Shown: positions 2,817 to 63,354 of the stretch, in pieces
Layout: each line of letters opens with the position of its first letter
Numbering within the stretch: position 1 is the first letter of the stretch
Assembly (NCBI GenBank): GCA_964638415.1
Contig: CAZWYP010000003.1
Span: forward strand, 86,334 to 150,333
Direction of reading: 5' to 3'
From: an uncultured Gammaproteobacteria bacterium
GTDB lineage: Bacteria; Patescibacteriota; Patescibacteriia; UBA1558; GWA2-36-10
Length of the DNA stretch: 64,000 nucleotides
The notes under the pieces: generated by a model
What the model was told of the DNA's origin: nothing
The model's database searches: none
The model's input: the letters and a program-made list of their open reading frames with translations, nothing else
Program-made: the position numbers and the translations under genes

Positions 2817-2964
2817 CGCTGGAGGCAGGATTCGAACCTGCGGAGATGAATGATTCCAAGAAATCTTGGAGAAATCCGCCTGTGTTTATAGCTTCAGATT
2901 TCTTGGTCTCATATGCTCATCGTCGGGTGTCAGACCGATGCTTTTAGCCACTCAGCCACTCCAG
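2817..2964 (-). ncRNA. Aberrant 148-nt tRNA-like gene, class-II-like with a roughly 70-80-nt internal insertion; identity unresolved
   Basis: The 7-bp acceptor gctggag/ctccagc is perfect. The D-arm tggctgagtggctaaaagc resembles Ser/Leu-type arms and the T-arm gcaggttcgaatcctgc is canonical. Between the anticodon region and the T-arm lies a long insertion holding an 11-bp hairpin ccaagaaatct/agatttcttgg. No canonical 5-bp anticodon stem with a 7-nt loop could be drawn. Confidence 0.45.
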
Positions 2965-3072
2965 CAACTGATTAAGAACAAAAAAATAGACAAAAATTAT
3001 TCTAGCAAATTAATATTATTCTGTCAAGATAAAGACCGCCGTATTTAACGGCGGTCTTGTTTTGTCTATTAT

Positions 3073-4965
3073 TTATTCAGCAGGAAGTTCTACTGGAGTG
3101 CTGACTGGCTGCAATTGCACTACGCGCTGATTGACGGTCTGCACATCCTTAAAATCATAACCTAATGATTTAAAAGTTTCTTCATCCTTGATCCAGTGGC
3201 GCTTGCCTTCAGCAATGATATAAACTTGGGGATTTTCTACAGTCTTGACTAAAGTGCCGTCAGCTAATTTAACTGGCGCCTCATCTTTTAATTCCTCCAG
3301 AATTTCCGGTTTATTCTCTATCTTCACATCAGCATAGTTAATCTCCAATATTTTTTGATCAACAATTGGCTTTTTAACTTTCTTTTCTTTATCTACTAAG
3401 TAGACGCCGCCATTTTTGGCTTTAATTAGGCTCTCGGTAGTTTTTAAGCTGGGCGTTGGTTTAATTGACGGCTTTTCTTCCGGCTTGATCTCTGGCTTTT
3501 CTTCTTCCGGTTTCACTTGCTCATCATCTTCAAAAGTCTTAATACTTGCTGCTTCCGTTGCTCGGCAGGCAAAAGTCTGTCCGCCGGCATCATAGTAGGC
3601 ACCAAAACTTCTAGTCGCCCAATTCCCAATAATGGTGTTGCCGATAAACTCGGCAGATTTAGTGGCTGGATACCATTTCTGGCAGTATTTAACCGCATCA
3701 ATATTAGCTCCGCTCACGCCGTCAGGATCAGTGGTCCAGGCAGCATCAGCATTATTACTGGTATTAACCGGAGTATAATACTTATTCACTTTGCCATAAA
3801 AATAACTAATTGCTCCCAAATCTTTACTGGTAGGCATAGCGCCTAAACCGTTAGTCGGCGGCGTCATACAGGCAAAAGTCAACCAGCGGCCATTTTCCCT
3901 CGTACCGATATATTTATACCAAGCAGGCTTGTAAGATCGATTATCCATGCTCAAAGCCACATAGCTGCCAGGAAAATGGGTTTGGCAAGCCTGCAAAGCA
4001 TCGCTAGCCCTGGTTGGTTTGACCGTGCTGGTTTGCCAACTGCTTTCCCCAATAGCGCGGTATTTGGCGGGAATATTCTTTCTTAAAACTACATAACCTT
4101 TCACATCACCAGGTAAAATTGGCCAATACGGAGAAAAGTCAACAATTGGTGATTCGTAAATGGATTTATCGTAATAATAATATTCCGGCTGATTCAAAGC
4201 TTGTCCACTTTCAGTCGGTTTGTCTGTTGGTTTGGTGGTCGGCTTTTCTACTGGTTTAACATCTGGCTTAGTAGTGCTGGTTGCACACTTTACATATTCA
4301 TGCACATGATCAGTAAAATATGACCACATTCTTCTGGCTGTACCATCAGTGTTAACCTTAGCATCCAGATCATCCACTCCGGTGGTATACCACTGTGACC
4401 ATTCTCCACTCCACCAGCGAATGCGGTATTTAATAATTTCCGGATGAGCAGAAACATCTAAATGCAGATTCTCCCAATATTTATCCATAGTCGGCTTGGC
4501 AATAACGCTGGTGCATTGGCTACCATGATTTAAACTGTCATCACTTGGCTTAGTGCTATCATCATCTAAATCATTGTCATTCTCCGGCTTATTACTGTCA
4601 TCATCGCAGACAATTATTTCATGGGTATAGTCTGTAAAACGCGCCCAGAGCCGTCTTTGGCTGCCGTCAGCATTCTTCTGCCAGTCAATATCGTTAATGC
4701 CCGGCACATACCAGTCAGACCACTGGCCATTGTCTAATTTCACCCGATAAGCTTGGATATCATCGTGGCCGGAAACATCTAATCCCTTTTCCCAATCATC
4801 ATCCTTGGTGGGAGCAATAGTCTTGGTGACTGGATTCTGACACTCAACCGTAAGGTCGCTGCCTTCTTTAACACCCAAAACCGTCATTTCCTTAGCCTGT
4901 ACTTGCCAAGCTAAGAGGCTAATTAAGCCAAAAGCTAATAAGCCTATTAGTTTAAAATTGCGCAT
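3073..4965 (-). CDS. Large secreted hypothetical protein with two tandem ~70-aa internal repeats and Pro/Thr/Lys-rich linkers
   Basis: The 630-aa ORF starts with signal peptide MRNFKLIGLLAFGLISLLAWQVQA. It contains two paralogous segments (…QAYRVKLDNGQWSDWYVPGINDIDWQKNADGSQRRLWARFTDYTHEIIVCD / …IKYRIRWWSGEWSQWYTTGVDDLDAKVNTDGTARRMWSYFTDHVHEYVKCA) and PT-rich linkers. Confidence 0.6.
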   Translation of the reverse strand: MRNFKLIGLLAFGLISLLAWQVQAKEMTVLGVKEGSDLTVECQNPVTKTIAPTKDDDWEKGLDVSGHDDIQAYRVKLDNGQWSDWYVPGINDIDWQKNADGSQRRLWARFTDYTHEIIVCDDDSNKPENDNDLDDDSTKPSDDSLNHGSQCTSVIAKPTMDKYWENLHLDVSAHPEIIKYRIRWWSGEWSQWYTTGVDDLDAKVNTDGTARRMWSYFTDHVHEYVKCATSTTKPDVKPVEKPTTKPTDKPTESGQALNQPEYYYYDKSIYESPIVDFSPYWPILPGDVKGYVVLRKNIPAKYRAIGESSWQTSTVKPTRASDALQACQTHFPGSYVALSMDNRSYKPAWYKYIGTRENGRWLTFACMTPPTNGLGAMPTSKDLGAISYFYGKVNKYYTPVNTSNNADAAWTTDPDGVSGANIDAVKYCQKWYPATKSAEFIGNTIIGNWATRSFGAYYDAGGQTFACRATEAASIKTFEDDEQVKPEEEKPEIKPEEKPSIKPTPSLKTTESLIKAKNGGVYLVDKEKKVKKPIVDQKILEINYADVKIENKPEILEELKDEAPVKLADGTLVKTVENPQVYIIAEGKRHWIKDEETFKSLGYDFKDVQTVNQRVVQLQPVSTPVELPAE

Positions 4966-5120
4966 AAATTATATATTAATGCTTAACTTTTTACATTATA
5001 CCACAGATACTACCTTTAAAACACCTATAGCCAATGCTAAAACCTCTTGATTTTTTCTACCTTAAGTGTATACTTATGCCTGCCATAATTCTAACTAAGC
5101 AACCAAATAACAGAGGAACA

Positions 5121-6146
5121 ATGCCCCAACTGCTAAAACAACAAATTCTGGATATGAATGCTGCTAAATCCAAAGAATTTGTTGACAATATCAATCTACG
5201 ACGCACATATCGTGGCCAATACAAAACTCATTTGGCCGCTACCATGTGCATGGATGGACGAGTAAACGTCAGGCGAGCAGCCGGTCTTCCTTTTGGTATT
5301 GTTTATCCTTTCCGTAATATCGGCGGAAAGTATAATGTCGGTTGGCCCCTCATGCGTGATTCTCTTGATCAGTGGGCCGACCACGCTCATGGTAAATACC
5401 ATGAAGCGCTGCTGATGACCACCTACCACTGGTCAAAAACAGACGCACACCTTGGCTGCCGCGGTTTTAATTATGATCGGGACGCAGCTGTCGCTGGCAT
5501 CCGCCAATTTCGTGATCAAGTTGCCTCTTGCTATGGTAAACGCATTTGGCCAGTATTAGTCGGAATTGAAACCGACAGTGATGCCTTGATCTTCCATGGA
5601 CTCAATGGCGAAGTGCTGGATCTGCGCGAAGTTCCTTTGGATAATTTAGCTGCTTTTTTTGAAAAAAGATTAGCAGAAATGTATCCGGACTTTCCCGATG
5701 TTGTTCTTTCCGACATGATTCCCCTGCTCTTGGGCAATGTGAATCATCTGCGCAAAAACGGCAGTTCTCACCAGGAAAAATTCCTGGCTCACCGCGAAAG
5801 AGTATTAGCCATCGGCCAAGGCTTTGACTGGCTGGACAATGACAACTTTGCTTTAATCATTGGCCCTTGTGAGCCGGCATTAGACAATGCCATTGTAACT
5901 GCTGCTAGCATTCTACAGTCCAATGTCACTGAGGGTCGCATTGATGCCAATGAAAAAGGCGTTTTGCTAATTTCTACACCCTACCGTCGAAGTATCGACA
6001 GGCTGGCAGCTATTGAGCAGTCTCGCTATCTAGCGGAGTTTGCCATGAAACATATTGGTGAACAAATTCCGGAGATGAGAGACTTCTTTGATCCGCTGGT
6101 TACGATCATCAACCTTGATGACCGCCGGCTGGAAATCTGCGGCTAA
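5121..6146 (+). CDS. Hypothetical protein with beta-carbonic-anhydrase-like zinc-site motifs (CxDxR … HxxC); the gene is GC-rich
   Basis: The ORF starts at MPQLL with RBS gagga 6-10 nt upstream. The longer track start at 5034 is unlikely. Motifs CMDGR and HLGCRG are spaced about 67 aa apart, as in beta-CA. There is a TTGATT-N16-TATACT promoter-like element at 5047-5074. GC is about 50% against about 38% in neighbouring genes. Confidence 0.45.
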   Translation: MPQLLKQQILDMNAAKSKEFVDNINLRRTYRGQYKTHLAATMCMDGRVNVRRAAGLPFGIVYPFRNIGGKYNVGWPLMRDSLDQWADHAHGKYHEALLMTTYHWSKTDAHLGCRGFNYDRDAAVAGIRQFRDQVASCYGKRIWPVLVGIETDSDALIFHGLNGEVLDLREVPLDNLAAFFEKRLAEMYPDFPDVVLSDMIPLLLGNVNHLRKNGSSHQEKFLAHRERVLAIGQGFDWLDNDNFALIIGPCEPALDNAIVTAASILQSNVTEGRIDANEKGVLLISTPYRRSIDRLAAIEQSRYLAEFAMKHIGEQIPEMRDFFDPLVTIINLDDRRLEICG

Positions 6147-6210
6147 GCTGAAGCGCAAAAAAACAAGCGGTCCACTGTGATGGACTGCTTTTTCTTTTAA
6201 GATAATACTA

Positions 6211-6414
6211 TTATTTTCTATACTCTAAAATATCTCCGGGCTGACATTCCAAAGCCTGGCAAATAGCTGATAATGTAGAAAAACGAATTGCTTTGGCCTT
6301 CCCATTCTTTAATATGGAAATATTAGCCAGAGTAATACCGACTTTATCAGCAAGCTCGGTTACTCCCATTTTTCTTCTAGCCAGCATTACATCAATATTT
6401 ATGATAATCGCCAT
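6211..6414 (-). CDS. XRE/Cro-C1 family HTH transcriptional regulator (YozG-like)
   Basis: The 67-aa product carries an HTH (VTELADKVGITLANISILKNGKAKAIRFSTLSAICQAL). It is paired with an upstream small membrane protein, as in yozG-DUF2975 gene pairs. Confidence 0.7.
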   Translation of the reverse strand: MAIIINIDVMLARRKMGVTELADKVGITLANISILKNGKAKAIRFSTLSAICQALECQPGDILEYRK

Positions 6415-6423
6415 ATTATTTTT

Positions 6424-6903
6424 TTAAACCGTTAAATCGTTTTCAGACTTTAGATCTACGGCACTTTGTAAAAGTTTTTCAAAAACAGCAGCGGCAGTAG
6501 TTACGACAATAGCAATAAAAGTAATAATAATGCCTAAGGAAATAGGACCAGTAATATCATCATTACCATGCCAAGTAACAATAAGATAAGCTTCTCCTAA
6601 TACAATAAAGCCAATTATCGCTAGCGCACAATATTTTATCGCCCTCAAAGATCTGATAGAGTTTAGTGAAAATACTTTATTCTGCTTAATATATCCTAAT
6701 AATCTAAATGCCTGGTAAAGAGCAGCAAAAAAAGGAATAGAAGCTATATACATATACACAATAACTGGATCAAAATAAATTTGAATCAAGTCTAAATTAA
6801 CCGCTCTGCCTTCAGTTAAGGGAAATCTAATAAGGCCTATTAATACCACGGCCCCAATGAATAAAATTACTATTTTTAGAAATATTACTGAGCCTTTTTT
6901 CAT
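6424..6903 (-). CDS. Small polytopic membrane protein (DUF2975-like partner of the XRE regulator)
   Basis: The 159-aa product has 4 predicted TM helices. It lies 9 bp upstream of the HTH gene in the same orientation. Confidence 0.5.
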   Translation of the reverse strand: MKKGSVIFLKIVILFIGAVVLIGLIRFPLTEGRAVNLDLIQIYFDPVIVYMYIASIPFFAALYQAFRLLGYIKQNKVFSLNSIRSLRAIKYCALAIIGFIVLGEAYLIVTWHGNDDITGPISLGIIITFIAIVVTTAAAVFEKLLQSAVDLKSENDLTV

Positions 6904-7235: not shown

Positions 7236-9950
7236 CTACTTCCCCATCCTCTTCCGGTAGATAATAAACAAGTATTTAATGATCTCAATCATCAGGATAA
7301 TCAGGAAAATGAAGATTAAGATAAAGCGCCATTCTGCCCAAGTCAAAGGCACCGTATGCAAAGCCTTATTAAAGAATGGAATATAGATAGCAATCAGCTG
7401 CAAGCCCAAGCCAAACAATACCGCTAAATTCAAATAAACATTCTTAAAAGGATTAGAATTAAAAATGCTGTTCTCTACACTCCTAATGCTGTAAACATAA
7501 AGCAAAGTGCTTAAGCTTAAAACAGTAAAGACTACCGTTCTGGCTAAAGCCAGATCATTAGTCTGCGTCCAGAACCAGTGAAATACCAATAAGCTGGCTG
7601 AACCCGCTACCAAGCTAATAACGGCAATGAGGAATTTATTCTCAAAACCGAATAAATGCCTGTTGCGGGAGCGATGGCTATGCTCCATAACATCTTTATC
7701 CTCCGGCTCCATGGTCAAAGCTAAGCTCGGCAAGCCGTCCGCAATTAAATTAATCCACAAGATCTGAGCAGTTAATAGCGGTAAAGGCAAGCCAAAGATA
7801 ATTCCTAAACCAACAATTAAGATCTCGGCAAAGCTGTCAGATAATAAATATAAAATGACTTTGCGGACATTAGCAAAGATCATTCTACCCTGCCTGACGG
7901 CCATCACAATAGTTTTAAAATTATTGTCCAATAAAATCAAGTCCGCCACTTCCTTGGCTACATCCGAACCGGAGTTCACTACCACGCCGACATCAGCCGC
8001 TTTTAAAGCCGGCGCATCATTAACGCCATCGCCGGTCATCGCCACCACCTCTCCTCTTTTTTGCCAGGCCTGGATAATCCTTAATTTATCTGCCGGCGTT
8101 ACCCGGGCATAAAGCTTGATCTTGGTAATGTTCTTAGCCAATTCATCGTCAGTCATCTGCAGTAAATCTTCGCCGCTGACTACGCTTTCCTCATCCACCT
8201 CCAAGCCTAGAATAGCCGCAATCTTCTTAGCGGTAAATTTATTGTCTCCAGTAATAATTACGGTTTTAATACCAGCGGCCTTGGCCTGCTCCAAGGTTTC
8301 TTTAGCTTCCTTGCGCACCGGATCTTCTAATCCCCAAAAGCCTAAGAAAATAAACTCCTGGCTTTTAAGCAGCTCGGTTAAGGATTCCAAGCTCTTGGGC
8401 GCCAGTAAATATGCCGAAGCCAATACCCGCAGGCCGTCCTTGCTTAATTCCTGCCAGGCTTTCTGGAAATGATCAAATTTAGAGTCAGTAAATTTAACCG
8501 GCTTATGATCATGAAAATAATAAGAGCAGAAATCCATAATAAACTCCGGCGCTCCTTTAATATACACCAGATCATGATCGCTATTATACCGGTGCCTGGT
8601 CATCATATACTTATGCTGGGAATCAAAAGGTATTTCCTGCAAACGTGGGTGCTTCAAATAAATATCTTTCAAGCGGCCGCCTAAAGAGCCAAAAAGCAAT
8701 AAGGCTTTTTCCGTCGGACTGCCAATAATCTCCCAATCTTCCCGGGACTTGGTTAAATCTGTTACGATGGCATCATTGCACAATAAAGAAACTGCCAATA
8801 ATTTTTCTATCTCCTTGTCAGCTTCTATATTCTTCCAAGGGGAAGCCAATAAATCCAGCTTATGCTGGCTGGTAATCACTGTGGTTACCCGCATTTCCCC
8901 TTCGGTCACCGTGCCCGTCTTATCTGTGCAGATTAAAGTTGTGGAACCTAGAGTCTCAGCAGAAATCAGCTTGCGCACCAAGCCCTGATGCTTCAAAATA
9001 CGCTGCATGCCAATAGTTAAAATCATGGTCACGCCAATTAACAATCCTTCCGGAATAGCAGAAACTGCCAAAGCTACGGAAACAATAAACATCTCTAAGG
9101 TGGGTAAGCCGCGCAGCAAGCCAATGAAAAATACTAAGAGCGCGACAATGACAATTATCCAGGTTAAATTCTGGGCAAATTTATTCAATTTCTTCTGCAA
9201 AGGAGTCTGTTCTTCTTCAGTAGCCTGCAATAGATCAGTGATCTTGCCGATTTCCGTAGCCAAGCCGGTAGCGACAACAATAGCTTTGGCACGGCCTGAC
9301 ACTGCCAAAGTACCCATAAACACCATGTTGGTTCTATCGGCTAAAGGCATTCCTTTATCCAAGCTGCTAACTTCTTTTTTCTCCGGCCAGCTTTCTCCGG
9401 TCAAATTAGCTTCGTTGACTTCAAAGAAATCAGCGGTTAATAATCTGGCATCGGCCGGTATCCTATCTCCCGCTTTAATGATGATTACATCCCCCGGCAC
9501 TAAGTCGCTAGCGGGAATCTTTATTTCCTTACTATCTCTGATCACCAAGGCTTCCTGCTTAACAACCTGGCTTAATTTTTCCAGCGCCTGATTAGCTTTC
9601 TTTTCCTGCATGAATCCGATGACTAGATTAAGCAGCACTGCCGCAAAGATTACATAAGCGTCAATAGCTTCAGAAAAAATAAAGCTAATAATACCGGCAA
9701 TGACTAAAACGTAAATCAAGGCGCTCTTAAACTGGGAAAAAAACAAACGCCAGGCGGAAAACTTTTTACTGGTAGCTAAAATATTGCTGCCATATTTTTT
9801 CCGCCGGTTTTTTACTTCGCCAGCAGTTAATCCTTTAGTGCTGGTGACCAGCTCTTTCAATACTTTATCTACCGATAAGCTATGCCAGATATTTTTTGCT
9901 TTTGACATAGGTATATTATAACATAAAACCCTTTGATATTTATAATCCAC
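7236..9950 (-). CDS. Cation-transporting P-type ATPase (P2-type, Ca2+/Mg2+-like)
   Basis: The phosphorylation motif ICTDKTGTVT, hinge TGDGVNDAPALKAADVGV and 10 TM segments are present. The true start is probably the internal MSKAKNIW… near 9908. Confidence 0.85.
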   Translation of the reverse strand: MDYKYQRVLCYNIPMSKAKNIWHSLSVDKVLKELVTSTKGLTAGEVKNRRKKYGSNILATSKKFSAWRLFFSQFKSALIYVLVIAGIISFIFSEAIDAYVIFAAVLLNLVIGFMQEKKANQALEKLSQVVKQEALVIRDSKEIKIPASDLVPGDVIIIKAGDRIPADARLLTADFFEVNEANLTGESWPEKKEVSSLDKGMPLADRTNMVFMGTLAVSGRAKAIVVATGLATEIGKITDLLQATEEEQTPLQKKLNKFAQNLTWIIVIVALLVFFIGLLRGLPTLEMFIVSVALAVSAIPEGLLIGVTMILTIGMQRILKHQGLVRKLISAETLGSTTLICTDKTGTVTEGEMRVTTVITSQHKLDLLASPWKNIEADKEIEKLLAVSLLCNDAIVTDLTKSREDWEIIGSPTEKALLLFGSLGGRLKDIYLKHPRLQEIPFDSQHKYMMTRHRYNSDHDLVYIKGAPEFIMDFCSYYFHDHKPVKFTDSKFDHFQKAWQELSKDGLRVLASAYLLAPKSLESLTELLKSQEFIFLGFWGLEDPVRKEAKETLEQAKAAGIKTVIITGDNKFTAKKIAAILGLEVDEESVVSGEDLLQMTDDELAKNITKIKLYARVTPADKLRIIQAWQKRGEVVAMTGDGVNDAPALKAADVGVVVNSGSDVAKEVADLILLDNNFKTIVMAVRQGRMIFANVRKVILYLLSDSFAEILIVGLGIIFGLPLPLLTAQILWINLIADGLPSLALTMEPEDKDVMEHSHRSRNRHLFGFENKFLIAVISLVAGSASLLVFHWFWTQTNDLALARTVVFTVLSLSTLLYVYSIRSVENSIFNSNPFKNVYLNLAVLFGLGLQLIAIYIPFFNKALHTVPLTWAEWRFILIFIFLIILMIEIIKYLFIIYRKRMGK

Positions 9951-9987: not shown

Positions 9988-11808
9988 ATGTCAATCACGG
10001 AACAGATTAAAAAATCAATCCAAAGTAATATCTGGCAGACCCTGCAATTACATTGGCCGACTAAAGACATTGAATTAAGCTGGCCGCCAGAGCAAGCGTC
10101 CGGCCATTATGCTTTTGGCTGTTTTAGCTTAAGCAAGGCCTTGGGAAAGAATCCCAATGAATTAGCAACTGCTCTAGCAAGCAACTGGGCGGCTTCAGAA
10201 TTAGTAGCCAAAGCCGAAGCCATGGGACCTTATTTAAACTTAATCATGGCTTTGCCTAAATTCTTTGCCAACAGCTTTAATTATCTTGCCGAGCAGAAAA
10301 AATTCGGAGAAAATAATCTAGGTCACAGCCAGAAAATACTCATTGAATTTTCCGGACCCAATACCAATAAGCCGCAGCACTTAGGCCATGTCCGCAATAA
10401 CTTGCTGGGCCAGTCTTTGGTGTACATTCTCCGCGCCTGCAATTACCAGGTAATTCCGGTGAATATTATCAATGACCGAGGCATTCATATTGTTAAAAGC
10501 ATGCTAGCCTGGCAGCAATGGGGAAATAAGGAAACGCCGGAAACATCAGGTATAAAAGGCGATCACTTAGTCGGCAAATACTATGTAAAATTTGAACAGG
10601 AATTAAAAATAGAAAAAGATCAGTATTTACAAGATAATAATATAGATTACAAAAATTTAGCCGATTTGGAGAAAAAGAAAGTGGATGAGGAATTTTTAGA
10701 AAGCTCTGCTTTGATGGCCAAAGCCCGCCAATTGCTAATTGACTGGGAAAAAGGAGACTTAGCAGTTAGAGAAGTTTGGGAAATGATGAATACCTGGGTT
10801 TACCACGGCTTTGCAGAAACCTACCAGGCCTTGGGCATTTCTTTTGACAAAGTCTATTACGAAAGTCAGGTGTATCTCTTGGGGAAGAAAATAATAGAAG
10901 AAGGTCTGGAGAAAAAAATATTCTACCAAAAGGAAGACGGCTCAATCTGGGTGGATTTAACCGAAGAAGGTTTGGATGAAAAATTATTGTTGCGCAAAGA
11001 CGGTACGGCGGTTTACATGACCCAAGACTTAGGCATGGCTAAAGCCCGCCATGATGAATACAATTTTGACTATGGCATTTATGTAGTAGCCAGCGAGCAG
11101 AATTACCATTTCCAGGCTTTATTTAAAATCTTAAAAAAATTAGATTTAACTTGGGCAGATAATCTGCTTCATTTGCCTTATGGCTTGGTTAATCTGCCGG
11201 ACGGCAAAATGAAATCCCGGGAAGGCAAGGTAGTTGATGCCGATGATTTGATCAAAGAAATGAAATTAAGAGCACAGGAAGTAATTGAATCCGCAGATAA
11301 AAAAGTAACTACCAGCGAAGAAGAAAAAAAGCAGATTGTTAATATAGTGGGCTTAGGCGCTTTAAAATTCTACCTATTGGGAACTAATCCGGCTAAAGAT
11401 ATTACTTTTGATCCGGCTAAATCCATTTCCTTTGACGGCTATACCGGCACTTTTATCCAATACACTCATGCTCGGATTAACAGCATCTTAGCTAAAACGG
11501 AAACTAAAGACTTGACGGTAAATTTCAAAAAAATAAAATATGAACCAGAAGAAGTAAAGTTATTAAAAACCATCTGGCAATTCCCAGAAGCAGTAGAGCA
11601 TGCAGCGCAAGAATATAATCCTTCTATCCTTACCCAATACTTATTTGAACTGGCTAAAACCTACAATAACTTCTACCAGAATCATTCTGTTCTCCAAGCG
11701 GAAACTGAAGATTTAAAAAACTTAAGATTGCAGCTCTGCAAATATACTCAGCAGATACTTAATAAAGGATTATACTTGCTCGGCATAGCAGCACCAAAAG
11801 TAATGTAA
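9988..11808 (+). CDS. argS: Arginyl-tRNA synthetase
   Basis: The 606-aa product has a class I HIGH-type motif (PNTNKPQHLGHVRN) and a KMKSREG (KMSKS-like) motif. Its length and domain order match ArgRS. Confidence 0.85.
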   Translation: MSITEQIKKSIQSNIWQTLQLHWPTKDIELSWPPEQASGHYAFGCFSLSKALGKNPNELATALASNWAASELVAKAEAMGPYLNLIMALPKFFANSFNYLAEQKKFGENNLGHSQKILIEFSGPNTNKPQHLGHVRNNLLGQSLVYILRACNYQVIPVNIINDRGIHIVKSMLAWQQWGNKETPETSGIKGDHLVGKYYVKFEQELKIEKDQYLQDNNIDYKNLADLEKKKVDEEFLESSALMAKARQLLIDWEKGDLAVREVWEMMNTWVYHGFAETYQALGISFDKVYYESQVYLLGKKIIEEGLEKKIFYQKEDGSIWVDLTEEGLDEKLLLRKDGTAVYMTQDLGMAKARHDEYNFDYGIYVVASEQNYHFQALFKILKKLDLTWADNLLHLPYGLVNLPDGKMKSREGKVVDADDLIKEMKLRAQEVIESADKKVTTSEEEKKQIVNIVGLGALKFYLLGTNPAKDITFDPAKSISFDGYTGTFIQYTHARINSILAKTETKDLTVNFKKIKYEPEEVKLLKTIWQFPEAVEHAAQEYNPSILTQYLFELAKTYNNFYQNHSVLQAETEDLKNLRLQLCKYTQQILNKGLYLLGIAAPKVM

Positions 11809-11848
11809 GAAAAATCCCACCAAGTAAACTTGGTGGGATCATGTTATT

Positions 11849-11877
11849 GAGCCTTGGGTGGCTCTTCTTTTTTTCCA
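11849..11877 (+). terminator. Rho-independent terminator after argS
   Basis: Hairpin gagcc-ttgggt-ggctc is followed by ttcttttttt. A second hairpin, cccaccaag-taaa-cttggtggg, lies at 11816-11837. Confidence 0.55.
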
Positions 11878-12040
11878 ATTGTTTTCCGTTGACCAATATA
11901 AGGCCCACTGGAACTGATAGCAATTCTCAACGTCAGCCTAGGACGCGGCTTTCTCGATCTTTTAACAAAAGCTCTCATAATAGAACTCCCTAATGAACAA
12001 AGGAATTAAATTGAGCTTAACTCTTTCTTAGACGTTAGTC

Positions 12041-12073
12041 AAAAACCCCCTAAGTAAAAACTTAAGGGGTTTT
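12041..12073 (-). terminator. Bidirectional hairpin terminator downstream of the small Cys-rich gene
   Basis: An 11-bp stem aaccccctaag/cttaaggggtt is flanked by T-runs on both strands. Confidence 0.6.
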
Positions 12074-12091
12074 AATAATCCTCGCTGCTGC

Positions 12092-12301
12092 TTAGCAACG
12101 GCAATAGCTGCGCGGCAAGTGGCAGCCAAGACATTTCTCTTCCTGGCGGCGCTTGGGCTTAGGCTTAGGCGATTGCTTCAAGACTGACAGCGGAATCTCA
12201 CTTTCCGCCTGATGGTCGCATAATGGACATAGTCCATTTTCCAAAGGCACATTGTGTTTGGGACAAGTAGCTGCAGAATCACCGGGATTTCTCATATTCA
12301 C
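12092..12301 (-). CDS. Small cysteine-rich (putative zinc-ribbon) protein, 69 aa
   Basis: A strong RBS taggaggtg lies 5 nt upstream of the ATG. There are 8 Cys arranged CxxxxxxxxxxxCxxC … CxxC … CxC. The gene is GC-richer than the flanks and has its own terminator. Confidence 0.5.
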   Translation of the reverse strand: MNMRNPGDSAATCPKHNVPLENGLCPLCDHQAESEIPLSVLKQSPKPKPKRRQEEKCLGCHLPRSYCRC

Positions 12302-12388
12302 CTCCTAAGGGAAGGTTAATTTAGGGTACGTTTAAGATAAGCCAATATAACAAAAAGACCTTTTTTCGTCAACCTAGCCTGGATTATC

Positions 12389-12417
12389 ATTGACTTTCCT
12401 TACAATATAAACTATAA
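12389..12417 (+). promoter_or_regulatory. Sigma70-like promoter for tRNA-Lys (TTGACT-N17-TATAAT)
   Basis: A near-consensus -35/-10 pair with a 17-nt spacer sits about 23 nt upstream of the tRNA 5' end. Confidence 0.6.
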
Positions 12418-12440
12418 TGAACCTCGTAAATTTTAAACAT

Positions 12441-12517
12441 GCGCCTATAGCTCAGCCTGGTAGAGCAGTTGCCTTTTAAGCAAACGGTCGCAGGTTCGAA
12501 TCCTGCTGGGCGCACCA
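12441..12517 (+). tRNA. tRNA-Lys (anticodon TTT), CCA encoded
   Basis: The acceptor is gcgccta/tgggcgc and the D-arm is gctcagcctggtagagc. The anticodon loop is ctTTTaa. The T-arm is gcaggttcgaatcctgc, followed by CCA. Confidence 0.8.
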
Positions 12518-12615
12518 GATAAATAATCCTTACGGGTTGTTTTTTATTATTGACAAATCACTATTAATTAACTATGATCACTGGAAACACTGTTCACTCA
12601 ATAGGAATAAATACC

Positions 12616-13053
12616 ATGAAAAAGGCACTTTTCTGGATAAGCGGAGCGATACTTTGGATAGGCCAAATAAGTTTTCTGAACTGGTGGGATGAATGGAATC
12701 TTACTTGGTGGCCGAGCTGCGTAATTATCGGCATCGTGGTCAATATTGTTTCAGGAATACTGATCAAAAAATTCATCTTGCCGCCCGAGCCGCCAAAGCC
12801 AGAAAGATCCTTAAACTGGATATTCTGGATCATTATCCTGGTTATCTGGGTAATCTTTTCCGCAATTTGGGCAGCTATTTTCAGAGGCATATCCAACTGG
12901 TGGAAGCTTGGCTTAGCCTGGTGGCCGAATTGCTGGGTATCCGGCATAATCCTGGGAATTGTCACTCTGCTCATCATTATTTACTGGATCTTCTGGCAAA
13001 CAACCATCGATGAGAGCCATTATGATCCTGACTACCAGAATCCCAGTGCCTAA
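12616..13053 (+). CDS. Trp-rich membrane protein with an internal duplication (WWPxC repeats)
   Basis: The ORF starts at MKKALFWISG. Two paralogous halves each carry WW…WWP(S/N)C followed by a TM helix (LNWWDEWNLTWWPSCVIIGIVVNIV / ISNWWKLGLAWWPNCWVSGIILGIV). Confidence 0.5.
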   Translation: MKKALFWISGAILWIGQISFLNWWDEWNLTWWPSCVIIGIVVNIVSGILIKKFILPPEPPKPERSLNWIFWIIILVIWVIFSAIWAAIFRGISNWWKLGLAWWPNCWVSGIILGIVTLLIIIYWIFWQTTIDESHYDPDYQNPSA

Positions 13054-15986: not shown

Positions 15987-16015
15987 TTGACAAAAATAGA
16001 TAAATATGCTATACT
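15987..16015 (+). promoter_or_regulatory. Consensus sigma70 promoter (TTGACA-N17-TATACT) for the 16061 gene
   Basis: A perfect -35 and a near-consensus -10 lie in an AT-rich region. RBS aaggag sits 8 nt upstream of ATG 16061. Confidence 0.6.
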
Positions 16016-16060: not shown

Positions 16061-16546
16061 ATGTCGCGTTCCAACGCCATTCGCCTGGCCATCATCGCCG
16101 TTGCTACCACTTTTACCGCAGCTATCGCTGCCTTGGTTGTATCCAAAGTGGATCTTGAGCCGCATAACCAGTGGCATATGGAAGTCTGGGAAGTTACCTA
16201 CCCGCTGCAGATTGACGGAGAAACCGTTGACACTTCTCAGCCGCGCTGGGAACTTGTCCAAAGCAATCTTGTTGACATCTTTGATGCCTATGACGGCATG
16301 ATGGAAACCATGCATGTCCAATGCCCGCTGGATATCAACCAAATCTGCAAGATCTACAACTCCTCCGCCGATACTTTATGGATCGGCAGATACTATGAGA
16401 CCAGCGACGGTTCGGAAAGCACTTTAGTCGGATTGATTCTACCCGGCGAAAGATCAGTAGTCGGCCTCGGCAATTTCGCCATCTGGCCAAAGAACAAGAT
16501 GAACGAATGGACGACAACGCCGTGGACTATCTACGCCCACCGCTAA
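16061..16546 (+). CDS. Hypothetical membrane-anchored/secreted protein; GC-rich single-gene island
   Basis: The 161-aa product has an N-terminal hydrophobic segment (AIRLAIIAVATTFTAAIAALVV). GC is about 52%. The gene has its own consensus promoter, a strong RBS and a downstream terminator. Confidence 0.55.
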   Translation: MSRSNAIRLAIIAVATTFTAAIAALVVSKVDLEPHNQWHMEVWEVTYPLQIDGETVDTSQPRWELVQSNLVDIFDAYDGMMETMHVQCPLDINQICKIYNSSADTLWIGRYYETSDGSESTLVGLILPGERSVVGLGNFAIWPKNKMNEWTTTPWTIYAHR

Positions 16547-16565: not shown

Positions 16566-16598
16566 AAACCCATCACTTAGGTGATGGGTTTTTCTTTT
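16566..16598 (+). terminator. Rho-independent terminator
   Basis: An 11-bp stem aaacccatcac/gtgatgggttt with loop ttag is followed by ttcttttac. Confidence 0.65.
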
Positions 16599-21186: not shown

Positions 21187-21573
21187 ATGAAAGGCTTTGT
21201 TCATGTTGTCTTTTTTGCTATTCCCCCTAAAAGGCGGGGGAAATTTTCTGAAGACATTCACTATGAAAACCTGCCGATTCGCGTTGAACACGCGGACACG
21301 GAAGAAGAGGGCTGGTCGCTGCTCAACAATCTACCCAACGAATTGAAACATAATTCTGCGCTGGTAATTATTGTTCCGCAGAAAACTGATTTGATCAAAA
21401 CCATCCGCAAGGAATACCGCCTAGCTACCATTCTGGTTTGGGATGAGAAGATCTGCTCTCCAAAAGCCAAAAAAGCCGGCGCCAATGCTGCATTCAACTA
21501 CAGCTGGCATATGACTATCCAGCTGCTAAGAGAAATAATGAACTGTGCCGAAGAATTAGAAGCTTCCGTTTAA
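21187..21573 (+). CDS. Hypothetical protein (128 aa), GC-rich; distant paralog of the next gene
   Basis: The gene has its own promoter, RBS and terminator. Its product shares a pattern with the downstream ORF (…ALVIIVPQKTDLIKTIRKEYRLATILVW vs …LLAIIPADENLAALLKQVWPEIKFIFW). Confidence 0.5.
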   Translation: MKGFVHVVFFAIPPKRRGKFSEDIHYENLPIRVEHADTEEEGWSLLNNLPNELKHNSALVIIVPQKTDLIKTIRKEYRLATILVWDEKICSPKAKKAGANAAFNYSWHMTIQLLREIMNCAEELEASV

Positions 21574-21596
21574 CGGAAGCTTTTTGTTTGACAAAA
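21559..21596 (+). terminator. Rho-independent terminator overlapping the stop codon
   Basis: Hairpin aagcttccgt/acggaagctt is followed by tttgttt. Confidence 0.6.
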
Positions 21597-21651
21597 TGCC
21601 TAATAAAATGATAAAAATAACTAATTAAATTGTACTTTACAGGAGAATACC

Positions 21652-22041
21652 ATGCTCACCGGCATATTTATCTATACTCTGCCAAAACTGGATCCTAAAG
21701 AGCCAGATCTGCAAGAACAGCTGTTTGCCGCCTGCCTCCAGGCAGACATCCAGCAGCTCTACGGCTGTTCCACTATTCCTGATTTATTCGGCAAGATTGA
21801 AAATTTCCGCTTTCATCACCGAGAAAAAGAACACCAATTGCTGGCCATCATTCCCGCCGATGAAAATTTAGCGGCTTTACTCAAGCAAGTTTGGCCGGAA
21901 ATTAAATTCATCTTTTGGAGCCGAGAATTGGCCAGTGACGAAGTGTTTAATCGTTGGCATCCAATGTCGGCCGGCCGTTACCACGACCAGAATGATCTGG
22001 ATGACTTTATCCGTATCATTTTGTCTTTGTTGGCAGAATAA
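21652..22041 (+). CDS. Hypothetical protein (129 aa), GC-rich; paralog of the 21187 gene
   Basis: A TTGACA-N18-TAAAAT promoter-like element lies at 21588-21617 and RBS aggaga is present. The product has length and a hydrophobic pattern similar to the upstream ORF. Confidence 0.5.
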   Translation: MLTGIFIYTLPKLDPKEPDLQEQLFAACLQADIQQLYGCSTIPDLFGKIENFRFHHREKEHQLLAIIPADENLAALLKQVWPEIKFIFWSRELASDEVFNRWHPMSAGRYHDQNDLDDFIRIILSLLAE

Positions 22042-35488: not shown

Positions 35489-35923
35489 ATGGATTATCGT
35501 CTATTTATTATCCCTATCCTGGTGATGCTAGTAGTGCAGGCCAGTAAAGTATTATTCTACCAGGGAGGCTGGGGCTGGGAAAGGTGGAAAAAAATCAATG
35601 CTTATGGCGGTATGCCTTCTTCCCATTCTGCCATGGTAACCTCTCTGACCTTCACCTTGGGATACTATCAGGGACTTAATTCGCCGGCTTTTGCTGTTGC
35701 CCTGGTCCTGGCTATGATTACCATACGCGATGCCAATGGCTTTCGTCAACAAGTCAGCCGGCACAGCGCTGTGATCAATAAATTAATCAAGGAACTGCCG
35801 GATAAAGAGGAATATAAATTCCCGGTGCTGAAAGAGATTTTCGGACACAAAACTACGGAAGTCATTGCCGGTATTCTGGCAGGAATACTCTTAAGCTATT
35901 TTCTGATTGCTGCTTGGTATTAA
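35489..35923 (+). CDS. Divergent PAP2 family membrane protein (YuiD-like)
   Basis: The 144-aa product has the PAP2-like motif GGMPSSHSA and four TM segments. Confidence 0.7.
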   Translation: MDYRLFIIPILVMLVVQASKVLFYQGGWGWERWKKINAYGGMPSSHSAMVTSLTFTLGYYQGLNSPAFAVALVLAMITIRDANGFRQQVSRHSAVINKLIKELPDKEEYKFPVLKEIFGHKTTEVIAGILAGILLSYFLIAAWY

Positions 35924-37497
35924 ATCAAAGGACTGCCGGTCATTTCCGGCGGTTTTTTTATTCCCATAATTTTTAAAATTGTTGGCGCTACATCAGCTAA
36001 TACCCCTACTGGCGTCACTGTGCTTAAATCCCGGCCGGCCGTGCCTACCAAAACGCTCTTGCCAATAAACTCCTGCCCCACTATAAACAGCGGTACGGGA
36101 CTATTGGAATGTTCTTTGTTAATTTCACCAGTTTGCAAATTATACATATTCTCGGCATTGCCATGATCAGCGGTAATCAGCACTACGCCGTCATAAGATA
36201 AGATCGTATCCACAATCTCCCCTACTTTTCTATCTAATATTTCAATAGCTTCAATAGTAGCCTGCAGATTGCCGGTATGGCCAACCATATCCGCATTGGC
36301 AAAATTAATCACGATAAAATCATAAACTGACTCTTTAACCTTCTCAATTACTTTGGCTGTGAGCTCCCGAGCGGACATGGCCGGCTTTTTATCGTAGGAA
36401 TTAACCCGCGGGGAAGGAATCAACAAACGCTCCTCTCCAGTAAAAATCTGCTCCTTGCCGCCATTAAAAAAGTAAGTGACATGGGCATATTTTTCTGTTT
36501 CCGCAATATGCAGCTGTTTTAGTCCGGCTTCAGATAAAACTCTAGCTAAGGGCATGGCAATTTCTTTCTGGCCAAAAGCTACTTCTACCGGCAATTCTTT
36601 TTCATACTCCGTCATCGTCGCCATCATCATATTCTTAAAATACGGCCGGCTGAATTTTTCAAAACCAGGCAGAACCAAGGCTTTGGTCAATTGCCTTGCT
36701 CTGTCAGCCCGAAAGTTAAAAAAGATCACACCATCACCGTCCTGAATGCAACCAATCGGTTTTTTCTGCTCATCGACCATTACTACCGGCACTAACTCTT
36801 CATCGTAAACCTGCTGGCTATATGAGTCTTCAATAGCCGCCAAGCTATCAGTAAACTGCTTATCTGACTTGCCGTCCACCATGGCCCGAAAAGCCTTCTC
36901 TGTACGCTCCCAATGATTGTCTCTGTCCATGGCATAAAAACGACCGGATAAACTGGCCAACTGACCCACGCCAATATCTTTAATATGATCCTTGAGCTTG
37001 CTAATAAAATTCAAACCGCTGTTATATGGAGTATCTCGGCCATCTAAAAAAGCATGGATAAATACTTGCTTGATTTCCTGCTTGGCAGCTAATTCTATTA
37101 GGGCATATAAATGCTCATTATAGCTATGCACGCCCCCGGAAGATACCAAGCCAATTAAATGCAAAGCAGAATTCTTATTCTTTACATGCTCAATTACCTT
37201 TAAAAAAGCCGGCATGGTAAAAAAGTCTCCATCAGCAATGGCTTTGGTAATCCGCGGCAGATTCTGGTAATAAATTAAGCCGGAGCCTAAAGCTAAGTGG
37301 CCCACCTCTGAATTACCGCTTTCTCCCCAAGACAGACCAACTGCCTCTCCGGAAGCCGCTAAAGGCATTACCGGGTAATGAGCCATGTATTTGTCAAAAT
37401 TGGGGGTTTTAGCTAAAGAAATGGCATTAGCCCGCGAAGGCGGCGCAATGCCGAATCCATCCAAAACTATTAATACTACTGGCTTAGGTCTTTTCAT
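35920..37497 (-). CDS. gpmI: 2,3-bisphosphoglycerate-independent phosphoglycerate mutase (copy 1)
   Basis: The 525-aa product has the catalytic-Ser motif GNSEVGH, metal-binding DGRD and HGN motifs, and phosphatase and transferase domains. Confidence 0.85.
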   Translation of the reverse strand: MKRPKPVVLIVLDGFGIAPPSRANAISLAKTPNFDKYMAHYPVMPLAASGEAVGLSWGESGNSEVGHLALGSGLIYYQNLPRITKAIADGDFFTMPAFLKVIEHVKNKNSALHLIGLVSSGGVHSYNEHLYALIELAAKQEIKQVFIHAFLDGRDTPYNSGLNFISKLKDHIKDIGVGQLASLSGRFYAMDRDNHWERTEKAFRAMVDGKSDKQFTDSLAAIEDSYSQQVYDEELVPVVMVDEQKKPIGCIQDGDGVIFFNFRADRARQLTKALVLPGFEKFSRPYFKNMMMATMTEYEKELPVEVAFGQKEIAMPLARVLSEAGLKQLHIAETEKYAHVTYFFNGGKEQIFTGEERLLIPSPRVNSYDKKPAMSARELTAKVIEKVKESVYDFIVINFANADMVGHTGNLQATIEAIEILDRKVGEIVDTILSYDGVVLITADHGNAENMYNLQTGEINKEHSNSPVPLFIVGQEFIGKSVLVGTAGRDLSTVTPVGVLADVAPTILKIMGIKKPPEMTGSPLI

Positions 37498-43561: not shown

Positions 43562-43650
43562 AGAATAATAAGTTAGAAGCCCGATTTCATTTTCACCGTC
43601 ATACTCCTTACCGGTAAAAATTGCTGGCAGAAAAAATGCTCCAGAAATGC
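43562..43650 (-). pseudogene. Vestigial RHS core-tail remnant directly after the immunity gene stop
   Basis: The segment translates to …AIFTGKEYDGENEIGLLTYYSKLYIVNVL*. Bases 43585-43630 are 36/40 identical to 44687-44726, the start of the RHS-CT ORF. Confidence 0.5.
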
Positions 43651-43910
43651 TATTGATCAATAATAGTTAAACTCATTAAATTCTTTGCCTCATGAATCTT
43701 TTTCTGGCATTCTTCATCTACTTTAATTTTATGATGTTGTACAATAGCTTCTAACTCGCTCAAAGCTAGCTCATACTCTCCTTGATCATATAAATACTCC
43801 TCACAGGTTTTTCTTTCTGATTCTTCAAAACTAGTCTTATATTTTTCGTAACAAAACCCTATTAACTCTTCTAGTTTTTTATAAAGATCTAATATTTTTT
43901 TATCTGTCAT
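43650..43910 (-). CDS. Putative immunity protein for the adjacent RHS C-terminal toxin
   Basis: The 86-aa acidic helical protein lies immediately downstream of the RHS-CT ORF in the same orientation, which is the canonical toxin/immunity arrangement. Confidence 0.5.
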   Translation of the reverse strand: MTDKKILDLYKKLEELIGFCYEKYKTSFEESERKTCEEYLYDQGEYELALSELEAIVQHHKIKVDEECQKKIHEAKNLMSLTIIDQ

Positions 43911-43926
43911 ATCATTAAATTTCAGA

Positions 43927-51196: not shown

Positions 51197-51405
51197 ATTA
51201 TTCTCTATATTAATATAACAATAGAATTATAAAAGATTCTAACGCATTTTACAATAAAATCATCAAGTTACTTTAGCCATTTTTTAACAAAAAAATGAAT
51301 ATTACCACCATTGACTAATAATCGTATATATGTTACATTATACTATTATTTTGTCCTTTGTCATTTAACTGATTTCAACAAATACAACTTGAGAAGGAGA
51401 CCAAC

Positions 51406-53109: not shown

Positions 53110-53138
53110 GAAATCTGGACGTTGAGTATTTTGCAGAC

Positions 53139-53168
53139 AGGAGCTTCAAACGAAGCTCCTGTTTTTTT
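53139..53168 (+). terminator. Rho-independent terminator after the GC-rich proS
   Basis: A 9-bp stem aggagcttc/gaagctcct with loop aaac is followed by gttttttt. Confidence 0.7.
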
Positions 53169-61581: not shown

Positions 61582-61585
61582 AATT

Positions 61586-63338: not shown

Positions 63339-63354
63339 AATAATATAATTAATT

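Follow-up and report, generated by a model that had tools for sequence, protein, structure and literature searches.

The window analysed here, a stretch of 64,000 nucleotides of contig CAZWYP010000003.1, derives from a Patescibacteria (Peregrinibacteria-like) metagenome-assembled genome (MAG) and carries, at positions 5121-6146, a gene that we assign to a compact, non-carboxysomal family of CsoSCA-type carbonic anhydrases, 'CsoSCA2'. A preliminary description of the window had listed this focal gene with six others as scattered GC-rich islands, each with its own promoter and terminator, and had read them as single foreign genes that remain only partly ameliorated. Our analysis confirms the observation in part and lends partial support to the foreign-origin interpretation.

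The gene content of the window fits a reduced genome of the candidate phyla radiation (CPR)/Patescibacteria: aminoacyl-tRNA synthetases (aaRSs), the Suf system and an mraZ-mraW-PBP-murF cluster are present, and L10, L7/L12, enolase, phosphoglycerate kinase (PGK) and two cofactor-independent phosphoglycerate mutases (iPGM) are also encoded. GC content is 39.5% overall and bimodal along the sequence (about 42% in 1-43 kb, about 34% in 43.5-64 kb), GC skew is negative across the whole window, and the minus strand holds 49 of the 63 genes. All seven listed islands are real open reading frames (ORFs), which we name below by their first coordinate; their positions and signals are collected in Table 1.

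The GC-rich segments might be assembly or binning chimeras, given that the sequence comes from a MAG and that the taxon labels of several related MAG records are implausible. Over 12.1 kb that include the focal gene, however, an independent Logan assembly of SRR10064596 is 100% identical to the window; host-like AT-rich promoter and terminator sequence borders every island; and the same gene order occurs in contigs of other samples. We give chimerism almost no credence.

Table 1. Positions, strands and associated signals of the candidate genes and the features that accompany them.
Feature	Position	Strand	Remarks
Sigma70-like promoter of focal gene, TTGATT-16-TATACT	5047-5074	+	9/12 consensus match only; about 45 nt upstream of start
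SD-like motif GAGGA of focal gene	5113-5117	+	3 nt ahead of ATG at 5121
Focal gene, predicted 341-aa compact CsoSCA-type beta-carbonic anhydrase ('CsoSCA2')	5121-6146	+	Assigned by alignment, profile and model
Hairpin and T-run, putative bidirectional terminator	6165-6198		Common to convergent helix-turn-helix (HTH) gene 6211-6414
Cys-rich small ORF, 67 aa (CPxH..CPLC..CLGC..CRC)	12092-12295	-	Promoter TTGACG-17-TATATT 12372-12344; SD AGGAGGTG 12306-12299
Terminator of Cys-rich ORF	about 12073-12041	-	Hairpin
Promoter of orphan gene, TTGACA-17-(TG)cTATACT	15987-16015	+	Consensus match
Orphan gene, 161 aa, N-terminal membrane anchor	16061-16546	+	SD AAGGAG; terminator hairpin 16566-16591
Two unrelated genes, 128 aa (21187-21573) and 129 aa (21652-22041)	21187-22041	+	SDs AGGAGG and AGGAG; adjoin tRNA-Glu
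Gene of 197 aa	49296-49889	-	Promoter TTGACT-17-TATTAT 49967-49939; SD AAGGA; terminator 49279-49246
Second prolyl-tRNA synthetase, bacterial type with INS editing domain	51406-53109	+	Promoter 51311-51339 TTGACT-17-TACATT; SD AAGGAG; hairpin 53135-53164
Lineage-typical prolyl-tRNA synthetase, comparator	56581-58287	-	37% GC; no SD

The carbonic anhydrase gene at 5121-6146

The interval from tRNA-Cys to tRNA-Asn holds the focal gene, which is encoded on the minority strand (C-rich, G-poor). Its start at 5121 agrees with the MPxxL N-terminus of its homologues and with the called 341-residue protein. The position of the upstream promoter-like site appears to fit a stand-alone transcript, and we propose that the gene is transcribed as such a unit, with its own promoter, its own Shine-Dalgarno (SD) motif and a bidirectional terminator in which a plus-strand hairpin at 6165-6190, followed by TTTCTTTT, overlaps a minus-strand hairpin at 6185-6170.

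Conserved residues, profile comparison and a structural model all point to a CsoSCA-type enzyme. About 48 homologues (after clustering at 90%) are all about 340 residues long, and the named ones come from Patescibacteria. Over 40 aligned homologues the residues C43-M-D45-G-R47, Y102-H103 and C113-x-G115 are invariant, and we predict that C43, H103 and C113 are the zinc ligands and D45/R47 the catalytic dyad. The family profile, compared with the Protein Data Bank (PDB), retrieves CsoSCA 2FGY at E=1.6e-14 and 2FGY, 9G4T and 8THM at E 1e-13 to 1e-14; in the alignment to 2FGY, CMDGR falls on CADGR, YH..GC falls on YH..GC, and a second segment falls on the C-terminal domain. An AlphaFold2 (AF2) model of the focal protein (predicted local distance difference test, pLDDT, 94; predicted template modelling score, pTM, 0.91) has helices at 2-22 and 24-33, a first strand at 37 and then two alpha/beta domains. 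Its top Foldseek matches in the PDB are again 8THM, 2FGY and 9G4T (E 1e-15 to 1e-16, template modelling (TM) score 0.68-0.77, with 369-391 columns for 8THM/2FGY), ordinary beta-carbonic anhydrases rank far behind these CsoSCA structures, and the layout is that of a catalytic domain followed by a degenerate second copy in one chain.

We propose that the protein consists of an N-terminus of ~35 residues forming two helices, a catalytic domain built around Cys43-His103-Cys113 and a degenerate second copy of that domain, and that a zinc-bound hydroxide would attack CO2 and so interconvert CO2 and bicarbonate, as in other beta-carbonic anhydrases. We infer a cytosolic location from the lack of a signal peptide and of nearby genes for carboxysomes or RuBisCO; Pfam annotation of the window's other ORFs, 12 of which gave no match, revealed no shell, CsoS2 or RuBisCO (cbbLS) genes.

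The same fold and zinc site also occur in enzymes with other substrates. COS/CS2 hydrolases have the same Cys-His-Cys zinc site and Asp/Arg dyad as the beta-carbonic anhydrase superfamily, and the focal protein could be a carbonyl sulfide (COS) or CS2 hydrolase, or a non-catalytic scaffold. The COS hydrolase 3VQJ is among the weak profile matches; the single focal sequence scores 20.5 bits against PF20686 (CsoSCA_cat), which has a gathering cut-off of 21.5; and CsoSCA2, according to the passages of PMC9164163 that treat it, was described from genome comparisons and never studied experimentally or assayed. These points count against our identification. Yet many homologues carry a precomputed PF20686 match, CsoSCA structures are far closer (E 1e-14 to 1e-16) than the COS hydrolase (E 0.04), and every residue needed for carbonic anhydrase catalysis is invariant in the family. 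We consider another activity, or none, very unlikely.

The interval from tRNA-Cys to tRNA-Asn is of mixed composition. Directly downstream of the focal gene and before tRNA-Asn, an HTH_26 regulator and a DUF2975 membrane protein are encoded at 6211-6903 (minus strand, 32-36% GC). At the other end, tRNA-Cys adjoins a 149-nt tRNA-like gene (2817-2965, minus strand) that scores 42 bits against the Rfam tRNA model over its entire span; ARAGORN calls it only with the intron option, as a doubtful tRNA-Val with a 56-nt insert, and it may be an intron-containing or class II tRNA.

Composition and Shine-Dalgarno motifs of the seven genes

The claim that all seven genes are conspicuously GC-richer than their neighbours holds in part. 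Six are the GC-richest of the 63 genes: 16061 (51.2%), 12092 (50.5%), 51406 and 49296 (49.8% each), the focal gene 5121 (47.0%) and 21652 (45.6%). The seventh, 21187 (44.4%), ranks 11th and is no richer than SufB and DnaB (about 45%). Measured against the non-candidate genes of 1-43.5 kb, which average 40.5 +/- 3.6% GC, the excess is conspicuous for four genes, moderate for the focal gene and not distinctive for 21187 and 21652, and the contrast of 49296 and 51406 is heightened by the bimodal background. The described framing by near-consensus promoters and hairpin terminators likewise applies to a subset: a promoter-like site and a terminator are both found for five of the seven (5121, 12092, 16061, 49296 and 51406), and the perfect TTGACA-17-TATACT at 15987-16015 is exactly as stated, but 21187 and 21652 have a promoter match of only 9/12 and no plus-strand terminator that we could find. 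Near-consensus promoters also lie upstream of tRNA genes and other genes, and are therefore not specific to the set. Five of the seven candidates lie on the minority plus strand, and three lie within 1 kb of a tRNA gene.

Against whole-window codon-usage and dinucleotide baselines several candidates, the focal gene among them, had appeared atypical, a result that we dropped once a strand asymmetry emerged. The clue lay in the pooled-baseline test itself, where NNC was over-used relative to NNT and NNA relative to NNG, and nearly all of the 'atypical' genes were on the plus strand. Third codon positions hold 26% C and 18% G in plus-strand genes, as against 19% C, 23% G and 34% T in minus-strand genes, so that minority-strand genes look 'foreign' whenever the baseline is pooled.

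We therefore corrected for amino-acid composition and compared each gene with a strand-matched, leave-one-out codon baseline. After this correction the only outliers are 16061 (codon-usage z -1.0, z for GC at third codon positions (GC3) +3.8), 49296 (-4.1 and +1.5) and 51406 (-8.3 and +3.1). The other four candidates are ordinary: the focal gene has a codon-usage z of -1.7 and a GC3 z of -0.9, with corresponding values of -0.9 and +1.3 for 21187, -1.1 and +1.4 for 21652, and -1.5 and +0.5 for 12092. Amino acids alone predict 45.0% GC for the focal gene, close to the observed value, and we attribute its raw excess to the amino-acid composition of a conserved enzyme combined with strand-specific codon bias. 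Its synonymous sites are at host equilibrium.

One further outlier was absent from the preliminary list. A 159-residue membrane protein without a family match, encoded at 12574-13053 (plus strand), has an 11/12 promoter, a strong terminator and no SD, and its GC3 of 0.55 and codon z of -3.3 set it apart even from plus-strand genes.

The SD motifs, which the preliminary description had called strong, set the seven apart more sharply than it stated. With an SD defined as 5 nt or more matching AAGGAGGTGA at -22 to -4, a motif is present in six of the seven candidates and in 4 of the 56 other genes (Fisher p=2e-5); the focal gene matches GAGG/AGGA, that is, GAGGA. Control motifs of the same composition show no enrichment among the candidates, and the window's ribosomal-protein (L10, L7/L12, L21), enolase and PGK genes have AT-rich leaders in which no SD was found.

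The association recurs in other genomes. In 35 other Patescibacteria loci, fetched for CsoSCA2 and analysed with CsoSCA2 itself excluded, an SD precedes 40% of the ORFs whose GC exceeds the locus median by 7 points or more, compared with 8% of the rest (odds ratio 8, p=8e-4), while control motifs are flat. These loci are otherwise SD-poor (0-18% of ORFs with an SD), and of ten GC-rich and/or SD-bearing ORFs that we checked in them, seven have no Pfam domain. A literature search on SD use in Patescibacteria returned nothing relevant. Genes that are GC-richer, stand alone and are led by an SD thus form a genuine and recurring pattern, even though the cause proposed for it fits only some of its members.

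Histories of the carbonic anhydrase, prolyl-tRNA synthetase and orphan genes

The nearest relatives of the focal gene are found within Patescibacteria. A scan of one genome per species yielded at least 591 CsoSCA2 loci, and relatives and tree were taken from the best 80; in a neighbour-joining tree these comprise Patescibacteria of many classes and a single Nitrosomonadaceae clade nested among them. The closest relatives of the focal protein, at 44-54% identity, are Patescibacteria, with the best non-self homologue at 54%, and the window protein groups with loci L006-L010 at 44-50%. Two of these loci, L008 (DATION010000005.1, labelled 'Candidatus Udaeobacter') and L009 (CAYJKP010000002.1, 'uncultured Gammaproteobacteria'), share synteny with L006 and L007, both Patescibacteria MAGs, at 73-96% protein identity, and for this reason their taxon labels are probably wrong. 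Uniform composition after correction and relatives within the host's own lineage, which the preliminary description itself had named as evidence against a foreign origin, are what we find for the focal gene, and we reject that reading of it.

Within the CPR, the CsoSCA2 subfamily nonetheless moves between lineages. The L010 gene (6131-7159) has 56.7% GC against 42% in its surroundings, its identity to the L007 copy (10001-11029) is 77%, and the two loci have nothing in common but CsoSCA2, a pattern that indicates transfer among Patescibacteria. The CsoSCA2 genes of L006 (10001-11023) and L008 (10001-11020) have flanking genes that are 73-89% identical, yet identity between the two encoded proteins is only 48% and a different gene comes next, which indicates replacement at a fixed locus. 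In 37 of 45 loci of low-GC hosts, CsoSCA2 has a higher GC content than its flanks, and an SD-like motif precedes every member of the window's clade (L006-L010) and none in the Moranbacteria clade. No repeats flank the focal gene except for tRNA T-arm similarity, and a CsoSCA2 profile scan of viral contigs found no family member. For the focal gene nothing points to a recent transfer, nor to a non-CPR host; it is plausible that it was acquired long ago from another Patescibacterium and that this left no synonymous trace.

The neighbourhood of CsoSCA2 offers some recurring features and no conserved partner that we could identify. A 630-residue neighbour at 3073-4965 was considered as one and rejected, as it is not homologous to the large neighbours in L002/L004. 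A P-type cation ATPase gene lies convergently, 1-2.5 kb downstream of CsoSCA2, in the window (7236-9908, minus strand), L006 (12408-15104) and L008 (13479-16163), and recurs in one Nitrosomonadaceae locus; we rejected it as orthologous synteny, since the ATPases are only 31.7-36% identical, those of L006 and L008, the two basal relatives, being only 36% identical to that of the window. The window ATPase has the top GC3 excess among the non-candidates of 1-43.5 kb, and the L006 ATPase is GC-rich too. Directly upstream of CsoSCA2 in two Patescibacteria genomes (L004/L008 5533-9585 and L006 5582-9526) are ATP-citrate lyase/citryl-CoA synthetase-like genes with ATP-grasp_2/Citrate_bind, CoA ligase, Citrate_synt and MJ0043_C domains.

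Foreign ancestry is clearest for the prolyl-tRNA synthetase (ProRS) encoded by 51406. This enzyme is complete, with class II core, insertion (INS) and anticodon-binding domains in Pfam and a score of 748 bits against PRK09194 (cut-off 558, NCBIfam). The ProRS of the low-GC gene at 56581-58287 is likewise a complete bacterial-type enzyme, and the two copies are 40% identical. The 51406 ProRS shares 49-51% identity with the enzymes of Thermosulfurimonas, Endomicrobium, Elusimicrobiota, Thermotomaculum and Syntrophus and 41% with a Peregrinibacteria ProRS, its best named relatives being Thermodesulfobacteria, Elusimicrobia and Deltaproteobacteria; the low-GC ProRS shares 55-57% with a Candidatus Peregrinibacteria protein (BLASTP, phmmer) and 39-42% with the same non-CPR bacteria. 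Since the 51406 enzyme is closer to non-CPR bacteria and the native copy shows the reverse, these comparisons identify it as a xenolog from outside the CPR, which we refer to as ProRS-x. For this gene, then, the claim of foreign acquisition stands.

The acquisition is not recent. Locus L085 (1-6452; 31% GC), from another sample, has the same gene order: ProRS-x, permease, ATPase, NMT1 binding protein, a 265-residue gene and native ProRS. ProRS-x is 73% identical in amino-acid sequence to the L085 copy (869-2572), its neighbours are 76-81% identical (global alignment), and AAGGAG is kept ahead of the true start of the L085 gene. Four-fold degenerate sites compared with related genomes are only 32-46% identical, i.e. 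saturated, and this saturation together with the synteny indicates that the transfer of ProRS-x predates the split from L085. GC at four-fold sites of ProRS-x is 60% in the window, where its neighbours have 34-41%, and in L085 has equilibrated to 25%, where neighbours have 20-29%.

The 16061 orphan has a similarly long residence. It shows the top GC3 excess in the window (GC3 62.5%) and has one homologue only, in L087, which is 66% identical, adjoins rplU as in the window and is GC-rich too (46.5% vs 30.2%). The -35 box, the extended -10 box, the SD AAGGAG and the spacer AAACGCC are all kept upstream of the L087 gene, and four-fold GC is 64% in the window and 52% in L087. A scan of viral contigs found no relatives of 16061. 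ProRS-x and this orphan are, to judge by their shared positions in related genomes whose four-fold sites are saturated, old residents, and the idea of recent, partly ameliorated arrivals fails for both.

The remaining candidates are less informative. The 12092 ORF, described as 12092-12301, more likely starts at the ATG at 12295, with AGGAGG 5 nt upstream; with either start it has no record in the protein collection, and it has no Rfam, Pfam or PHROG match. That it might be a structured RNA was considered and rejected, a relaxed Rfam scan of 11800-12450 having given no support. Between this ORF and the ArgRS terminator lies an Arg/Lys-rich ORF of 44 codons (11845-11976, minus strand), which is a gene call in the Logan assembly. 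The genes at 21187 and 21652 probably form one transcript; neither has a Pfam, NCBIfam or PHROG match, a metagenome contig scan found no relatives of 21652, and the composition of both is within the range of other plus-strand genes. With composition and strand controlled, 12092, 21187 and 21652 are indistinguishable from host genes. At its C-terminus the 49296 protein weakly matches TIGR03694, an exosortase-associated acyltransferase family (E 2e-8). It has no relatives in metagenome or viral contig scans and no match among PDB sequences, and its single-sequence AF2 model was discarded (pLDDT 34). Searches of the orphans against PHROGs and relaxed Pfam gave nothing useful. A foreign origin is plausible for 16061 and 49296.

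We found no integrases, flanking direct repeats or phage matches beside the GC-rich islands. Integron-like sites were considered and rejected, since the terminator hairpins, compared by eye, show no mutual similarity and no direct repeats flank the genes; an Rfam scan of the whole window found only tRNAs and an L10 leader.

Several other features of the window deserve mention. The stretches 58522-61022 (plus strand) and 61006-63864 (minus strand) hold two neighbouring serine recombinases with near-identical N-termini, one of 301 residues and the other of 532 residues with a zinc ribbon, followed by a 29-32% GC block of unknown genes; this region may be an integrated element, and its compositional anomaly is stronger than that of the GC-rich genes. 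At the start of the AT-rich half, 43650-44745 (minus strand) encodes the end of an Rhs-like core followed by an EndoU nuclease toxin domain (43927-44745), and an 86-residue small ORF downstream is probably the immunity gene. Upstream of the enolase and PGK genes, two tandem iPGM paralogues occupy 35920-37497 and 37499-39079 (minus strand).

One set of genes, probably several histories

The reading that each of the seven genes was acquired singly from a partner or host of higher GC, possibly from one donor clade, and is only partly ameliorated, has real observations behind it. The set includes the six GC-richest genes; each of the seven is preceded by an SD that core genes lack; five come with a promoter and a terminator, five are encoded on the minority strand and three lie within 1 kb of a tRNA gene; ProRS-x has its best matches outside the CPR; and CsoSCA2 has been transferred among Patescibacteria. 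Against it stand the Patescibacteria relatives and host-like synonymous composition of the focal gene, for which the reading is refuted, the ordinary corrected composition of 12092, 21187 and 21652, the synteny of ProRS-x and the orphan in diverged relatives, and the lack of any integrase, direct repeat or phage match beside the islands. Nor is a common donor nameable, as ProRS-x is about 50% identical to several phyla equally and the candidates other than it and the focal gene have no informative homologues; nothing detectable points to a shared donor or to a higher-GC host or partner. We regard this reading of the whole set as quite unlikely.

At the other extreme, there may have been no transfer at all: the seven would be native genes whose GC content reflects protein composition, lagging-strand codon bias and selection tied to SD-led expression. 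The strand effect explains most of the apparent codon atypicality and four of the seven are ordinary after correction; the conserved promoter and SD of the orphan and the conserved SD of ProRS-x suggest purifying selection on expression signals; four-fold GC of the orphan is high in both lineages despite saturation; and L7/L12 also prefers NNC codons. But ProRS-x, a full second ProRS, is closer to non-CPR enzymes than to the lineage's own enzyme and deviates in codon usage even from the plus-strand baseline, the L010 and L006/L008 cases of CsoSCA2 would go unexplained, and the presumably highly expressed L10, L21, enolase and PGK genes have neither an SD nor a raised GC3. A wholly native origin of the set is, in our judgement, unlikely.

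We favour, with moderate confidence for the explanation as a whole, a composite account in which the seven genes are not one phenomenon with one donor. All seven would be self-contained, SD-led units in a genome whose core genes lack SD motifs. The focal gene would belong to an accessory family exchanged among Patescibacteria, and ProRS-x would have been acquired from outside the CPR before the split from the related lineage and kept alongside the native copy. The common thread may be that long-resident accessory genes arrived with, or depend on, their own expression signals.

Several observations weigh against this composite account. Our codon baselines are drawn from 64 kb only, with 2370 codons for the plus strand. 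The dinucleotide signature of the focal gene exceeds that of all length-matched random core fragments, in a control that is blind to single-gene and strand effects. The GC content expected from the amino acids of the focal gene is the highest among the window's enzymes, and this could be a relic of GC-richer ancestry. For the SD comparison, starts of non-candidate genes were taken from the longest ORF or adjusted manually, so that some SDs were possibly missed. Finally, a simple old transfer followed by amelioration fails to explain the difference in four-fold GC between the two copies of ProRS-x; a later allele replacement, or selection, is possible.

A more general model can be offered tentatively. 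Patescibacteria may share a pool of self-contained, GC-richer accessory genes, each consisting of promoter, SD, ORF and terminator, that are exchanged between lineages and replaced at fixed loci, in genomes whose core genes lack SDs. In at least some of these genes the GC excess would be actively maintained, by selection or GC-biased gene conversion, and would not be a fading trace of transfer; CsoSCA2 would be one such cassette. We view this model as possible, short of probable.

A 'hypothetical protein' of a CPR genome can be annotated as a carbonic anhydrase of the compact CsoSCA type and joins a family that is known but uncharacterised. CsoSCA2 is widespread, and its presence in organisms of minimal metabolism prompts the question of which step that depends on CO2 or bicarbonate it serves. 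For genome scanning, the case shows that uncorrected GC differences lead to too many calls of transfer; four of the seven calls can be accounted for by the amino acids encoded, by strand bias and by the two GC levels of the background. Two patterns may, if they hold genome-wide, be informative about the uptake and expression of foreign genes in reduced symbiotic bacteria: the near-confinement of SDs to GC-richer stand-alone genes of an SD-poor genome, and the joint retention of native and xenologous ProRS in related genomes.

The focal protein is closest to CsoSCA2 as described in the relevant passages of a 2022 genome comparison (USF Genomics Class/Scott et al., Front Microbiol 2022, PMC9164163): a compact variant of ~340 residues with an active and a defunct beta-carbonic anhydrase domain, all catalytic residues, a two-helix N-terminus of ~40 residues in place of the 144-residue RuBisCO-binding domain, and a gene away from the carboxysome locus. 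Homologues from Nitrosomonas oligotropha, of the type cited there as an example, are relatives of the window protein at 37-39% identity. Compared with CsoSCA2 as those passages present it, the window protein differs in its Patescibacteria host and in its place in a subclade whose members carry an SD, exceed their hosts in GC and show transfer and allele replacement among Patescibacteria. Carboxysomal CsoSCA/CsoS3 (2FGY, 8THM, 9G4T) has the same fold (TM up to 0.77), zinc site (Cys-His-Cys), Asp/Arg dyad and pair of domains. Identity to it is only 16-18%, however, and the window protein has shorter loops, no RuBisCO-binding N-terminal domain and 341 residues against 462-542; genes for the cso shell, csoS2 and cbbLS are absent from the window. 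Canonical beta-carbonic anhydrases (E. coli Can/CynT, Porphyridium 1DDZ) share the CxDxR and H..C zinc motifs and the core fold; their matches are weaker (E 1e-7 to 0.1, TM about 0.3), and whereas they are homodimers of one-domain subunits, the window protein is a predicted pseudo-dimer in one chain.

The other candidates invite two further comparisons. Xenologous second aaRSs in bacteria are often linked to resistance against natural aaRS inhibitors. The window's ProRS pair resembles such systems in comprising two complete enzymes of different ancestry, the foreign copy with its own composition, promoter, SD and terminator. Unlike second aaRSs of the resistance type, it has no inhibitor biosynthesis genes nearby; it flanks an NMT1-type ABC transporter operon and is kept as a pair in the related genome. 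Classical genomic islands, as in the amelioration model of Lawrence and Ochman, are said to combine deviant composition with accessory or unknown functions and sometimes to lie beside tRNA genes. The islands described here differ from these in being single genes rather than blocks, with no integrases or flanking repeats found; the deviation is towards higher GC in an AT-rich host and is kept by at least one gene, the 16061 orphan, even after synonymous saturation.

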